Below are positions 32,572 to 58,257 of a stretch of DNA of 64,000 nt, piece by piece. The translations under genes were made by a program, and so were the position numbers. The DNA comes from Eledone cirrhosa (taxonomy: Eukaryota). The notes below the pieces were generated by a model. That model did not search any database. It was not told the origin of the DNA and was given only the letters and a program-made list of their open reading frames with translations. The stretch covers positions 38,502,001-38,566,000 of the forward strand of contig OZ024753.1 in assembly GCA_964016885.1 (NCBI GenBank), given 5' to 3'. Every line of letters begins with the position of its first letter. Within the stretch, counting starts at the first letter, position 1.

Positions 32572-32772
32572 TAACAAAGGAATTGTGGTAAGGAACCAAA
32601 TGGACCATAACGCACCAGAGTACTCAATACTTAGGGTAGTAGAGTGGGAAATAGGAAAACGTATGACCCCGACGGCAGAGCTCAAACCGTTTCGACGGCT
32701 ATTTCTGGACTGAGTCCAGAAATAGCTGTCGAAACGGCTTGAGCTCTGCCGTCGGGTCATACTTTTTCCTAT
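32572..32772 (-). mobile_element. TA-embedded fold-back family C, full copy
   Basis: ~80-bp tail plus ~120-bp palindrome containing the HHR 3' half GAAA CGGC..GCCG TC GGG. Confidence 0.9.
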
Positions 32773-33002
32773 ATATATATATATATATATATATATACTG
32801 TTATATTTGGAGAGGGTCATATTGTTATAAGATTGCCAGAAATAATTGTTTCTACTTTAGGCACAAGGCCAGCAATTACCCAGTACATTACTGGTACTTT
32901 ATAATAACAGAATACACTGACTGTTTGGTTTGGGTTGGTTTTCGTTTCTGTATCTTTTATATCTCTATAGTTAATTTATCTGGCAATCAATGTATTTAAG
33001 TC

Positions 33003-33262
33003 TAAAGTCTGTCTTAAGCCAGAAGGCTCATCCCGGTTTCATGGCGTGAAGTGACTGAGAGTACAAGACTTCCCCCTGGACAGGACGCCAGTCCATCGCA
33101 GGGTCAAACCCCCAGCTATTGTTGGTACTCATTTTCAGCTGAGTATACTGGAGCAACGTGAAATGAAGTGTTTTGTTCAAGAACACAACACACAACCCAG
33201 GCATCGATCCCACGACATTATGATCGTAAGTCCAACACCCTTACCACTAGGCCACGTGCCTC
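33003..33262 (-). mobile_element. tRNA-derived SINE with family-B head and a different 3' half
   Basis: Minus strand: GGCACGTGGCCTAGTGGTAAGG...GGATCGATGCC...TGTGTTCTTGAACAAAACACTT...CCCTGCGATGGACTGGCGTCCTGTCCAGGGG. Confidence 0.85.
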
Positions 33263-33678
33263 TCTCTCTCTCTCTCTCTCTCTCTCTCTCTCTCTCTCTC
33301 TCTCTCTCTCTTTCTCTCTCTCTCTCTCTACACACACACATATATATATATATATATATATATATATATATATATGTGTGTTCACACACACACAGAAACA
33401 AAATGGCGTAGGACAGAACAAAGGAGAGGCACAGAAACAAAGAAAGGAATCCCCAGTCACTGAAGAGGTCACAGAGTGTGTGACGAAAGAACTATGACTA
33501 TATATAAACAACTATCTGGTTGTGGAACCAACCAACCAACCAGAAATTTATAAATTTATTATAAATTTATTATAATAAACTGAAGTGAAAGCAACTGGTG
33601 CGTGTGTTTCTTATTGGCAACATGACCCTCCCAAAGTATAACAATATATATATATATATATATATATATATATATATA

Positions 33679-33777
33679 TAACAAAGAAAGTGTGGTAAGA
33701 TACCAGCTGGACCATAACGCACCAGAGTACTCGATACTTAGGGTAGTAGAGTGGGTAATAGGAAAAGAGTCAGGACA
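33679..33777 (-). mobile_element. family C tail-only copy
   Basis: GTGGTAAG...GGACCATAACGCACCAGAGTACTCGATACTTAGGGTAGTAGAGTGGGTAATAGGA next to (TA)n. Confidence 0.85.
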
Positions 33778-54487: not shown

Positions 54488-54640
54488 CATCGGTAGAAAG
54501 GAATGTTAGGATGTTGGATAGAATACTTTGTAGTATTCGTTTCAACTCTCGACGCCTTGAGTTCAAATCCTGCCGAGGTGAACATTGTCTTTCCTACTTT
54601 TGAGGTCGATAAATAAAGTATTAGTCTAACACTGGGGTAA
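54488..54640 (+). mobile_element. SINE family A, diverged (another at 56780-56960 on minus)
   Basis: GAGTTCAAATCCTGCCGAGG...GGTCGATAAATAAAGTA. Confidence 0.7.
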
Positions 54641-57600
54641 ATTCTGCATTTATATATCTTTTTAACTATCTCTTTTCCTCTGTAGCTTTCATATACTTTT
54701 GAGGTTGATAATAAACAACCACACACACACACATATCTATTTACCTACCCATCTATCTATCTATCTATCTATCTATCTATCTATCTATCTATCTATCTAT
54801 CTATCTATCTATCTATCTATCTATCTATATTTATATGTATGATATATTTAGTTTCCTATATAAATGTTCAATCTCTTTATCTTCTTCCTTTTCCCACCTC
54901 TCTCTCCCAATGTTTCCATTTTCCCTCCGCACTACGAATACACACACACACACACACACACACACACACACACACACACACACACACACACACACACACA
55001 CACACACACACACACACACACACACAAATATATATATATATATATATATTTACACAAAAGCAAACAGAAACGCATGTAAACTGTTTGTTATGAGACACCA
55101 TGATACACTATTGTATATATATATATATATGTATATATGTATATAAATATAAATATAAACACACATATATATAATAAATACATAATATTGAATATTATAT
55201 ATAAATAATTATACACGCACACATACGTATATATGCACATATATAGAGCCATACACATACATCCACGGAAGCAGCACATATACACATCTATACATCTACA
55301 CACTTACACACTCACACACTCACACACGAATACATAACTCCTATTACATATACCCACCAGGTGGTATAGATTGCAGAGGTATTTATCTAATAGCTTTGTG
55401 GCTTTATTTGATAATGTAGCGCGTCTATAATGTCAATCCTTCGTCTTTTCTGTCTGTCTTTCAATCACTTTTTTATGATTGCCACCCATAGTCTCTCTCA
55501 CATTCTCCCCCCCTTCTCTCTCTCTGTCTTTCTCTCTCTCACACATATTCTTTATTCCTCTCTCTCGGTCTCTCTCCGTACGACCGCATTTTCCTTGCTT
55601 CTTTCTTTATTTATTTTTTATTATTTTTCACTCTTGATGGCCGTTTTATGAGTCCTTTTCATAACATCGCTTGTGTGCTTGCGTAGCCTAGCCCCTTGCA
55701 GCTCGGAAAAACAAAACAAAACAACAACAACAACAACAACAATTACAACAGCAACAACAGCAATAACAAAAACCACTTTCATAATCCATAAATGAATAAT
55801 TAAATGCCGTCTCTCAAACTAATGGAAGTAACATTGAACAATTATAGACAATCAAATCATATTAATAAAAATGCAAAAAAAAACAACAAAAAAACAGCAA
55901 CAACAAACAAAAAAAAAAGAAAGAAAAAAAGGGAGAAAAAAGAGAAAAATAAACAAACAAAAAAATTAGCAACTTTCGTTAAACTCCAGGTTAACGAGTT
56001 CGATTGATTCATGTTTTTTTTAATTCTGGTCACAAATAAAACTGTGGACAAAACTGATCAGGTCAGTACTTCACAAACAAAATATACAAATAACACACAC
56101 AAAAAAAGGTGAACATTAATCCTCCTCCCCCCTAGCAAAAATAGTAACAAAAAGACCAGACTCTGCTAAAATCACTGATGATTTTTAAAATAATTTTTTT
56201 CAAGAACTAAAATACTTTAACAAACTAGAATTTATTGATTTCTAACATTATCAGAAAACTACAAATTTGGAAAAGTGTGAAATTTTTATTATTCGATTCA
56301 ATCGATCACTGTAATTGCATGATTAGTAACTTATCGAATTGTACTCTAGAGAGATGAAAGAGAAAAGCCGCTTTATGGCGGGTGGTGGTTGTTTTGAAGT
56401 GGTTGGGTGGATGGGCGTGGTTGGATTCAGTTTCTATTGAATCCAACATTATACCATTGACACAAACACATTCTTAGATTTGAAAAAAAAAACCCCTCAA
56501 AGATTTAGAAAGTCCATATATATTTTTATATATCATTGTGTGTTGTGATAAACCTCCACCGGTTTCAACGATGAGTGTTCCTATTAATTTAATCAACAGA
56601 ACAGCCTGCTCGTAAAATTAACGTGCAAGTGGCTGAACATTCCACAGACACGTATACCCTTAACATCATGAGCATATTGCTCTTCTCATTTTTTAGTGTG
56701 CAGACGTTACTAATCTTCTGACAAAAATGACTAATTTCCCGACGAAAATGACGGAAATTTTCCGACAAAATCTGGGGGTAGCACAAAGTTGATTAAACCA
56801 ACCCCACCCAGTACTTGAATGATATTTTGTTATCAACCATGGAAAGATAAAAGGCAAAGTAGACCAAGGTGGGATTCGAACTCAGAAAGTAAAATCCCGG
56901 AACAAATACCACAAAACAATTTGTTCGATGCTCAAACGATTTTGCCCATCCACCTCTACGTATATTATAATATTGAACCTGTTAATCGGGGACTGAAGCC
57001 TCGACATTGATATAAACCTTCATAGTAAATATATTTAAAAAAATATTATTTATATATTTTTCCCTGTTATTTTTTTAATATTTTGGGCTTTTTTTTATCT
57101 TCTTCAGGTATTCAAATGATGACAAGCAGCGGGAGATTATTGGATTTTTTGCAATGACATTTGTTAATCTATTAATCTTTCGGCCATGTTTGTATAAGTC
57201 ATTCTATGACACTGTTTACCAATCGCCCACACTCTTATATTAACCTACTACTCCCTGGCTGCCTGGCTGCCTGCCTACTGGGCGGCTCTATTTGTCTATA
57301 TACCCTTTCATTCTTTCAGTCTTCCATTTTCTTATTCTTTTATTCTGTCACTGGCTTCAGTCGTTAGATGGCAGTCATGCTGGTGGTACTGTCCTCGAAG
57401 AGATTTAGTTGATCATATCTATCTTACTACTAATGCTTTATTTTTTCAAGTCTGTTACTTATTTCATCGGTGTCTTTTTTCTTGAACCGCTAAGTTACGG
57501 TACATAAACATACACAGAGACTCAAACGTAAACACACAGTCATTTATAGACACGCATACTCTCTCTCTCTCTCTCTCTCTCTCTCTCTCTCTCTCTCTCT

Positions 57601-58060
57601 CTCTCTCTCTCTCTCTCTCTCTCTCTCTCTCACACACACACACACACACACACACACACACACATATATTCCAAGAGGCGGCGAAATGAACAGACCTGCT
57701 TTTTCTCGAAGAAATTATTTTCGTTCCTACCCCAGCTCATTCTCCTCTATCTTTCTATTTCTTCTTTAATTTCTCATTCTATTTTTTTATGAAGGACCAG
57801 CTTCAGAAACGTTAAGGATTTTTTTTACTACTATATATTAAACGTAAAACTAATATATATCTTCATTGAACTTCATCATATATTAGTTTACGAAGTTTGC
57901 CGAAGAGAACCCGTGCAACTCCGCCCGCCACTCACTCAATGATATAAAATTTATATGTAAGAAAATACAAACTTATAACTGAGAGTGTTGTGTTATGTAC
58001 ATCCCCTCTCCCCCCTCTCTCTCTGTCTCAATATATATATATATATATATATATATATAT

Positions 58061-58257
58061 ATAGGAACGAGTAGGACCCCGACGGCTGAGCTCAAGCCGT
58101 TTCGACGGCTAATTCTGGGTCCAGAATTAGCCCTCGAAACGGCTTGAGCTCAGCCGTCGGGGTCCTACTCGTTCCTATTACCCACTCTACTACCCTAAGT
58201 ATTGAGTACTTTGGTGCGTTATGGTCCACCTGGTTCCTTACCACATTTCCTCCGTTA
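58061..58257 (+). mobile_element. family C full copy
   Basis: Palindrome 58061-58178 plus tail ending CCTCCGTTA. Confidence 0.9.

Follow-up and report, generated by a model that had tools for sequence, protein, structure and literature searches.

Short palindromic repeats in the Eledone cirrhosa genome are truncated insertions of a Penelope-like element, probably formed by twin priming

Insertions of Penelope-like elements (PLEs) typically contain an inverted, 5'-truncated copy of the element and a tail at one end, with TATA/Inr-like motifs in the pLTR and palindromes at the inverted junction (PMC3846280; PMC8557442), and the formation of inverted pLTRs and tails is listed as an open question in PMC8557442. 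For the head-to-head palindromes of rotifer Penelope elements, self-priming on an antisense template has been proposed (PMC3846280). In vitro work on Poseidon-Ac, an anole PLE whose protein is predicted to dimerize, showed that both strands of an AT-rich target are cut and extended, and that synthesis begins at two internal sites, close downstream of the ribozyme, which delimit the tail and have no strand preference (Frangieh et al. 2024, PMC11167929); no link from this result to inverted pLTRs was found in the text of that paper examined. Our literature search found no paper in which twin priming or cap run-off is stated for PLEs, although subscription journals and the older Penelope papers were thinly covered. 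Twin priming of L1, attributed to Ostertag and Kazazian (2001), is said to involve two target-strand primers on one RNA, such that the 5' part becomes inverted; it reportedly leaves small junction indels and is occasional, with a variable second site and arms that do not overlap.

Here we analyze a 64-kb stretch of the Eledone cirrhosa genome (64,000 nucleotides; the window) containing six palindromes of about 200 bases, which are truncated insertions of a very abundant PLE with Hydra-clade motifs. Positions within the element are numbered with the G of GAAAC as +1, and its copies in the window are as follows.

32572..32772, minus strand: copy 1; the +126-end arm lies on the minus strand with its 5' end (-18) at 32711, a single extra G stands at the centre (32712), and the +43-end arm on the plus strand begins with A(-18) at 32713
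36132..36326, minus strand: copy 2; +126 arm (minus) to about -19/-21 and +43 arm (plus) to -12, joined with 3-nt microhomology
40246..40410, plus strand: copy 3; both arms trimmed to -2 and joined via a self-complementary TCGA
41877..42094, plus strand: copy 4; both arms extend to -20; the 9-nt filler is a duplicate of junction sequence, and the left arm has an additional 4-nt duplication
48087..48280, plus strand: copy 5, of the TCAGTAC subfamily; junction within the 14-nt imperfect palindrome of the template, so that the breakpoint is ambiguous
58061..58257, plus strand: copy 6; +43 arm to -15 and +126 arm to -17, joined bluntly
58136..58164, plus strand: 3' half of a type I hammerhead in copy 6 (GAAA, stem III with a GAGCTC loop, UC cleavage site, 3' strand of stem I)
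58179..58257, plus strand: PLE tail of copy 6, the interval between the fixed 3' ends +43 and +126
33679..33776, minus strand: partial copy, tail only, with a +126 end
36082..36106, plus strand: partial copy, a 25-nt +43 end adjoining copy 2
45197..45256, minus strand: partial copy, tail only (+63..+126)
46740..46802, minus strand: partial copy, a solo +43 arm ending at -19 and fused to unrelated sequence

A sequence-only reading of the window had described the six near-full copies, and its account of their location and anatomy stands: copies 1 and 2 are on the minus strand and the other four on the plus strand, and each has only the 3' half of a hammerhead (stem II 3' strand, GAAA, stem III with its palindromic GAGCTC loop, UC and GGGGTC), an inverted arm terminating in CCTAT/(TA)n and another arm with the 83-nt tail. 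The four partial copies were absent from that reading. Rfam gave zero matches within the window. Non-LTR retrozymes (bioRxiv 10.64898/2026.07.22.740005) are likewise short PLE-derived repeats with type I hammerhead sequence; unlike those, the copies here are non-tandem and without a complete ribozyme. In the window each copy stands alone, without the 5' ribozyme core, whereas a retrozyme consists of tandem units with complete hammerheads.

The same reading had taken the copies for the footprint of a PLE, and a master with a 5' ribozyme half and a PLE ORF does exist: the intact relative L158 encodes a 719-aa RT/GIY-YIG ORF and has the ribozyme half absent from the window copies. In the master the tail region is 5' leader, upstream of an ATG at about +214. 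The predicted layout of its ribozyme, GACCCC-CTGANGA directly before a short stem II, was wrong in detail; loop II is about 30 nt, and the CTGANGA pattern missed the master since the actual core, mostly TTGANAA, is found about 60 nt upstream. Searching for GACCCC-CTGANGA with a short gap gave five genome matches, none from the present family, and of 48 matches with CTGANGA at most 36 nt from GAAAC, the 30 inspected were junction accidents or chimeras. The missing half is mostly the U3-A8 variant (7,291 genomic matches), which has already been described in PLEs (PMC4209133); some subfamilies have a mismatched C3/A8 in the core. The minimum-energy fold of L158:6618-6716 has type I hammerhead topology with a YUGANRA/GAAA/UH core, albeit with z = -0.51, and with core and stems I-III all present this segment is a candidate type I hammerhead ribozyme.

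The protein carries Hydra-clade motifs. P0001, a single ORF with 661 relatives of similar length, contains YRDDG and a C-terminal VIY...YIG region, read from these motifs as a reverse transcriptase with a C-terminal GIY-YIG endonuclease; comparison of the ORF with Pfam, PDB sequences and phage records gave no informative match. It shares with the Hydra clade of C-terminal EN+ PLEs (Craig et al. 2021, PMC8557442) the DKG to DKT change (HSDKTG), a CxCX5C linker (CNCPDRSIC), the absence of CCHH from the core, and CxxC and CxH around E and N (CNLC before EE, CKH after N), together with the C-terminal GIY-YIG, a hammerhead in the pLTR and insertion into (TA)n. By eye, the RT blocks agree with the Hydra alignment supplementing that paper. 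The present family differs in having RWR near the N-terminus where the Hydra clade has RWK, a unit of 3.1 kb, a ribozyme with a U3-A8 core, a loop II of about 30 nt and a 5-6-bp stem III, and tens of thousands of copies in which about 90% of arms are stubs (compare PMC8557442). It is also distinct from Hydra-1_Obim, whose listed ribozyme differs (PMC8557442).

In almost all insertions a +43 end and a +126 end are placed head to head in (TA)n. Genome-wide, 21,489 ends lie at +43 versus 20,556 matches reading past it; among 534 sampled arms, 240 end at +43 and 230 at +126, with (TA)n next to the arm end in 142/153 and 118/125 cases, respectively. This sample is drawn mostly from the first 27 Mb of C1 and the window neighbourhood and was picked by exact-match patterns. 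Ends were typed in 123 head-to-head pairs of less than 220 nt (the less-biased set and further loci, an untyped end being allowed), in which 116 (109+7) have one end of each type, two are long-long and two short-short; the remaining pairs, given as nine, have one untyped end. The +43 and +126 ends also bound kilobase insertions carrying the ORF. The proposal that insertions are joined to the target through TA is borne out by the TAT common to both ends and to the (TA)n target. No empty target site was seen.

The two arms of a locus resemble one another, and the co-variation noticed in the window holds in a larger sample of chromosome neighbours and pattern matches. The -8 site is concordant between arms in 65/65 pairs and the +17 site in 83/84, and the two arms share the variable 9-mer in 69 of the 104 usable pairs (of 116) versus 12% of random pairs. 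The arm-clustering check was run as pairwise distances, because arms of 53 nt carry too little signal for a tree, and arms do pair by locus: the mean distance over -12..+41 is 1.88 within a locus versus 4.8-5.1 between loci (65 pairs). A few pairs have arms of discordant subfamily (L247, L257).

Such concordance could arise if a palindromic non-autonomous unit, MITE-like or retrozyme-like, were copied whole, with intra-hairpin gene conversion and erosion of the centre after insertion. Fifteen variants are indeed common to both arms, and most of the best 30 matches to copy 6 share its centre, in a search that selects for the centre. Set against these are 114 variants confined to one arm, while 10 of the 15 shared variants fall at two recurring subfamily sites, and arm divergence (2.1-2.2%) is near that of the unpaired tail (2.7%). 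The asymmetric ends continue into the PLE ORF, in place of the fixed structure and symmetric termini of a MITE. The 104 pairs comprise 90 distinct junction types, and independence of junction type from subfamily and flank is partly seen. We regard a unit copied whole as extremely unlikely; the preponderance of one-arm variants likewise tells against gene conversion, which the sequence-only reading had offered as its alternative, and favours its view that the arms are made at insertion and not homogenized later. The centre sequences it quoted for the six copies are correct, but the uniqueness of every centre is not borne out in the larger sample, where an identical junction was found again in different subfamilies. 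Logan contigs from public runs contain the same palindrome family with many differing joints, which excludes an assembly artefact.

How the second arm is made can be judged from arm lengths. Junctions were called with an ungapped caller, as a gapped version over-extended through the template's own stem, and 12 of 116 pairs in which indels broke the call or the callers disagreed were excluded, leaving 104; L001-L065 and L096-L155, selected on centre or upstream sequence, were omitted from the symmetry statistics. The short-end arm reaches further upstream in 37/104 pairs and the reverse holds in 39/104 (binomial p 0.91, KS p 0.39); with all 116 pairs the split is 45 versus 43. At L156, L158, L161, L171 and L276 the short-end arm is longer by kilobases. 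The arms overlap in 116 pairs, whereas in 12 copies (11 of 25 tail-only arms, and L200) the long-end arm stops inside the tail and has no sequence in common with the short arm.

These lengths bear directly on the snap-back proposed from the window, in which the +126 cDNA folds onto stem II, or onto chance microhomology, and copies itself to +43. Snap-back would account for arm concordance, and a loop-compatible geometry occurs in 29/104 pairs, with at least 1 nt of pairing in 11/104, yet the mirror geometry, impossible by snap-back, is equally frequent (27 and 13 of 104). A snap-back copy cannot contain template missing from its parent cDNA, so the longer short-end arms, by kilobases in several loci, reject it; the twelve copies without overlap, the discordant subfamilies in L247 and L257 and the doubled G ends described below also speak against it. 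A genome pattern search for the exact stem-II fold-back product gave one match, which is not such a product. Snap-back is thus contradicted as a general route, and we consider it very unlikely, though it may operate in a minority of cases.

Long arms are informative in another way. The partner of a long arm usually lies beyond the upstream edge too, as in about 10 of the 13 cases resolvable by eye (nine were not resolvable, and the partner of L278 is short-short); this suggests a common template. L156, L157, L159, L160 and L161 were fetched as pairs but retained among the long arms, being also matched by anchor searches. Most likely the same RNA molecule templates both cDNAs, with different RNAs in a few cases. 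The cross-family chimeras L036, L045, L056, L064 and L353 might seem to prove the use of two RNAs, but centre-to-centre deletion between neighbouring palindromes gives the same appearance and leaves them ambiguous. Post-insertion deletion of palindrome centres could also inflate the asymmetry and be the source of some non-overlapping or chimeric cases.

The axis of the palindrome had been described as wandering within stem II, but turnarounds instead concentrate at -12 to -23, against a hard upstream edge. Among 326 arm stops, 139 lie at -17..-23, 10 at -24..-59 and 28 beyond -60, and the 5' truncation profile does not differ between the two arm types. In the 21 templates scored (of 24), A(-18) is preceded by a TATA-like box at a distance of 29-31 nt; its sequence context is T[T/C]AGT. 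Genome-wide the -19 base is an untemplated G in 5,420 matches versus A in 890. An untemplated 5' G is an accepted mark of a reverse-transcribed cap in L1 and SVA (PMC4859970). Either arm type can carry the -19 G (7 and 6), and in five copies (L337-L341, with 0-6 nt between) the two arms carry it together; in L337-L339 G-AGTCC terminates both arms with 0-1 nt between. In most of 15 single-G loci (L342-L356) the G is also readable as the next base of the partner arm, and part of the G excess may therefore be a junction preference. The edge, the TATA-like box and the -19 G suggest that A(-18) is the transcription start and the capped 5' end of the RNA; in copy 1 both arms stop at this putative start. 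A further 56 of 326 arms extend past A(-18), to -20..-23, for which a second start, at A(-22), could be responsible, or else T-rich fillers or fortuitous matching to the 24 AT-rich templates.

The antisense-template self-priming put forward for rotifer Penelope palindromes (PMC3846280) has the merit of being a published account of head-to-head palindromes that would also explain intron retention. Here, the axis falls on a TATA/Inr-like arrangement of the sense strand and the sense-strand extra G is present on both arms, while two fixed ends in 1:1 use and independent arm lengths are not predicted; we think it highly improbable for this family, in which the data point to two sense-primed cDNAs. 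Another possibility is an LTR-like strong-stop and strand transfer, in which the arms are still two cDNAs but the palindromes are failed jumps to the RNA 3' end through a -18..+24 redundancy left by ribozyme cleavage. RNA that begins at -18 and is cut by the next ribozyme at about +24 would carry a terminal repeat of about 42 nt, and jumps would account for long arms that end at +43 or +126; but long arms tend to co-occur in both partners, which one read-through template fits better, and the -19 G is found on 0/52 long arms. Strand transfer therefore appears unlikely.

As truncated insertions of an EN-bearing PLE, the palindromes were probably produced by twin priming, in which two cDNAs are made from a capped RNA and then end-joined. 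This reading is preferred because of the independent arm extents, the non-overlapping cases and the double G ends; the genomic products point to two cDNAs primed head to head from opposite target strands. The element protein would cut both strands of (TA)n to give a two-sided double-strand cut, and each target 3' end would start cDNA synthesis at one of two internal RNA sites, whose TAT is also present in the target. The two cDNAs would then extend to the capped 5' end of an RNA starting at A(-18), after which host end-joining would trim them and unite their ends through microhomology, bluntly or with filler. The axis would then mark the RNA start and not the ribozyme stem, and the tail would measure 83 nt because this is the distance between the two proposed priming sites; tails of 30-40 nt are found in published PLEs (PMC3846280; PMC8557442). 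Longer arms, roughly 9% of the total, would derive from read-through RNA that carries a whole pLTR and ORF upstream of both sites, yielding a classic kilobase insertion with an inverted pLTR.

Compared with L1 twin priming, the proposed process here is near-obligate and uses two fixed internal sites, and the usual overlap of the arms is what makes the product a palindrome. The L1 pattern of a first primer at the RNA 3' end, a variable second site and no overlap is not seen, with 116 overlapping pairs against 12. Unlike Poseidon-Ac (PMC11167929), the present family as a rule uses one of each site per insertion, and the two sites are located in the leader ahead of the ATG and have TAT in common with the target. 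A bolder and rather doubtful extension is that double-ended insertion is the default PLE reaction, with a dimer priming two overlapping cDNAs, inverted pLTR and tail as obligatory by-products, and the hammerhead as a brake on full-length transposition: as the sites are 61 and 144 nt from the cap, unit-length ribozyme-cut RNA could then yield only dead palindromes of about 200 bp. Other TA-flanked palindrome families would, on this extension, be start-site maps of their own PLEs. We note that many other such families are present in the genome.

The family offers more than 20,000 natural products able to discriminate between models of PLE insertion, and it ties the 2024 in vitro result, in which both strands are extended from two start sites, to a genomic structure. 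It also allows exact predictions, namely RNA starting at -18 and cDNAs primed at +43 and +126 with each site used once per event, and it supplies an ORF that looks intact. Twin priming would explain the long-puzzling inverted ends of this class of elements, and may account for abundant short palindromic repeats at risk of being misclassified as SINEs or MITEs.

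All six family C copies, palindromes of about 200 bases beginning at 32572, 36132, 40246, 41877, 48087 and 58061, were found in the window as the sequence-only reading described, two of them on the minus strand, together with four further fragments. Each copy lies between (TA)n tracts and consists, in order, of a short arm in inverted orientation, a centre that varies and another arm carrying an 83-nt tail; the 3.0-Gb genome contains 52,348 exact matches to one family C 24-mer. The reported co-variation of the arms within a copy also holds, well over chance: numbering the G of GAAAC as +1, the arms agree at the -8 site in 65/65 pairs and at the +17 site in 83/84, a variable 9-mer is the same in both arms of 69/104 pairs as against 12% of random pairs, and the +20 base of the short arm is predicted by a tail marker in 74/75 typed pairs. 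At L007, L305 and L223 family C has inserted into other palindromic repeats, at the TA in their centre, and the flanks are mutually inverted repeats. Family C, upstream template included, is also present in contigs of two other organisms (runs X5 and X6), and the X5 contigs additionally show a family C palindromic join.

The arms have two fixed 3' ends, at +43 in 240 and at +126 in 230 of 534 distinct arms; both nearly always run into (TA)n, and TAT is common to the two sites and the target. Genome-wide, 21,489 arms stop at +43 and 20,556 continue beyond it. Among close head-to-head pairs, typed in a less-biased set plus loci from the family C 24-mer search, 116 have one end of each type, 4 have two of the same type and 9 have one end untyped. 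The one-of-each rule extends to kilobase insertions (L156-L161, L163, L164, L171, L276, L286 and L298).

The short arm had been attributed to snap-back, in which cDNA ending at +126 folds on hammerhead stem II and is copied into the +43 arm; the converse is excluded because the +43 arm lacks the tail. As the general route, snap-back is contradicted by the extents of the arms, by arms that do not overlap and by the near-absence of its product. It requires the +43 arm to be contained within the +126 arm, whereas in 104 pairs (12 of the 116 were removed, their calls being broken by indels) the further-reaching arm is +43 in 37, +126 in 39 and neither in 28, and the two extent distributions do not differ; with all 116 pairs kept the split is 45 to 43. 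Eleven of the 104 pairs have the snap-back geometry with pairing, as against 13 with the mirror geometry, which snap-back cannot produce. The +43 arm exceeds its partner by about 1 to 4 kb at L156, L158, L161, L171 and L276, and is the shorter at L157, L159, L160 and L163. Non-overlapping arms occur in 12 copies, namely 11 of 25 tail-only arms plus L200, where the +126 arm ends within the tail and the +43 arm extends to its usual edge. A fold-back product on the real stem II had one pattern match genome-wide, at a locus that is no fold-back. That the arms are made at insertion is nonetheless supported: in 81 pairs, 114 variants occur in one arm only and 15 in both, and arm divergence is 2.1-2.2% compared with 2.7% in the unpaired tail, so arm concordance does not stem mainly from intra-hairpin gene conversion.

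We consider it likely that family C palindromes arise by twin priming, with two separate cDNAs, and cap run-off. The element protein would cut both strands of (TA)n, each cut end would prime one cDNA at +43 or +126, both cDNAs would extend to the capped 5' end of the RNA, and end-joining would fuse them; junctions in the 104 pairs comprise 51 with microhomology, 11 blunt and 42 with filler. The available part of an in vitro study of an anole Penelope-like element (PLE) agrees, in that both strands are extended, two internal starts bound the tail and a dimer is predicted (PMC11167929). A single RNA probably serves both primers, because the arms are almost fully concordant and long arms are mostly paired (about 10/13 resolvable cases, a weak count made by eye). 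Arms swapped between common subfamilies, at L247 and L257 among the 104 pairs and, within selected sets, at L007 and L350, suggest that two RNAs are sometimes used. A second family, whose canonical hammerhead is complete, supplies the arm that lies head to head with a family C arm at L036, L045, L056, L064 and L353; the partner arm in three of the five chimeras begins at a matching AGTTCC position, probably that second family's own transcription start. As a sign of two RNAs the chimeras are ambiguous.

The palindrome axis follows the 5' stops of the arms, of which 139/326 fall at -17 to -23, 149 are shorter, 10 lie at -24 to -59 and 28 extend beyond -60, in a profile common to +43 and +126 arms. 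A(-18) lies in the initiator-like context T[T/C]AGT, and templates carry a TATA-like box 29-31 nt above it. TATA and initiator-like motifs are reported, in the accessible text, for rotifer PLE terminal repeats (pLTRs). At -19 the template base is T or C, with G in 0/52 long arms, and arms genome-wide have G 5,420 times versus A 890. Both arms carry the -19 G, with 0-6 nt in between, at L337-L341, chosen among the first 100 listed -19 G matches for having two adjacent matches; in the first window copy both arms stop at -18 with one extra G. An untemplated 5' G has been taken as reverse-transcribed cap in L1 and SVA, in the portions of those reports at hand. We infer that the axis marks an RNA start at A(-18) and that the extra G derives from the cap, although at most single-G loci the G equally matches the next base of the partner arm. 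Poly(T)/poly(A) fillers adjoin the -18 to -21 edge at L178, L236, L273, L286, L296 and L238, which suggests that the end of the cDNA slipped or was tailed. L342 represents a complex event in which two run-off ends took part: two +43 arms each beginning G-AGTCC are fused via rearranged tail sequence.

A scan of the DNA analysed, window and loci, gave 112 candidate other TA-flanked head-to-head palindromes, including several candidate families with their own recurring tails (about 29-33, 67-68, 78-83 or 89-91 nt, or none). These are likely to be stubs of other PLE families, made in the same way.

Other repeats in the window
11061, 14443, 21239, 40787, 41232, 50944 (plus-strand starts, minus-strand rows too): other TA-flanked palindromes
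2158-2303, 4029-4221, 6801-7015, 16752-16869, 19009-19166, 30168-30461, 32841-32902, 35741-35879, 44840-44902, 54505-54646, 56784-56939: further abundant interspersed repeat family
34350-35650, 37715-38530: tandem minisatellite-like arrays

A pattern search allowing a longer gap located the upstream template. The PLE origin proposed for family C is supported by L158 (G000:C1:11225300-11233200), an intact relative with an inverted pLTR plus a pLTR-ORF-pLTR tandem of period 3,118 bp. Its open frame spans 786 codons, or 719 aa counted from the first Met (about +214), and has reverse transcriptase and C-terminal GIY-YIG motifs, with DKT, CxCX5C, CxxC/CxH, no CCHH and a (TA)n target, the marks that define the Hydra clade in the available text of PMC8557442; on motifs rather than a tree, the element would belong with that clade. 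A master copy carrying the ribozyme 5' half does exist, and that half has 7,291 pattern matches genome-wide, but the core after ACCCC is mostly TTGANAA and not the expected CTGANGA. This U3-A8 form is a PLE hammerhead variant already described (PMC4209133, as far as its available text goes). The L158 ribozyme folds as a hammerhead whose stem/loop II is long, at a stability no greater than that of shuffles. Genome-wide, certain subfamilies combine C3 with A8, a mismatched core pair, alongside U3-A8 and C3-G8 forms; such ribozymes may be inactive in elements still spreading.

Given a template bearing ORF, pLTRs and ribozyme 5' half, the window copies are ordinary PLE insertions, of the kind that has an inverted pLTR plus tail, in extremely truncated form. 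Family C is new as a family, with very high copy number and Hydra-clade features; its structure type is already known. The literature searched contained no account of near-obligate, overlapping twin priming and cap run-off in PLEs, and the mechanism supported here differs from the antisense self-priming proposed for rotifer Penelope elements in the available part of PMC3846280.
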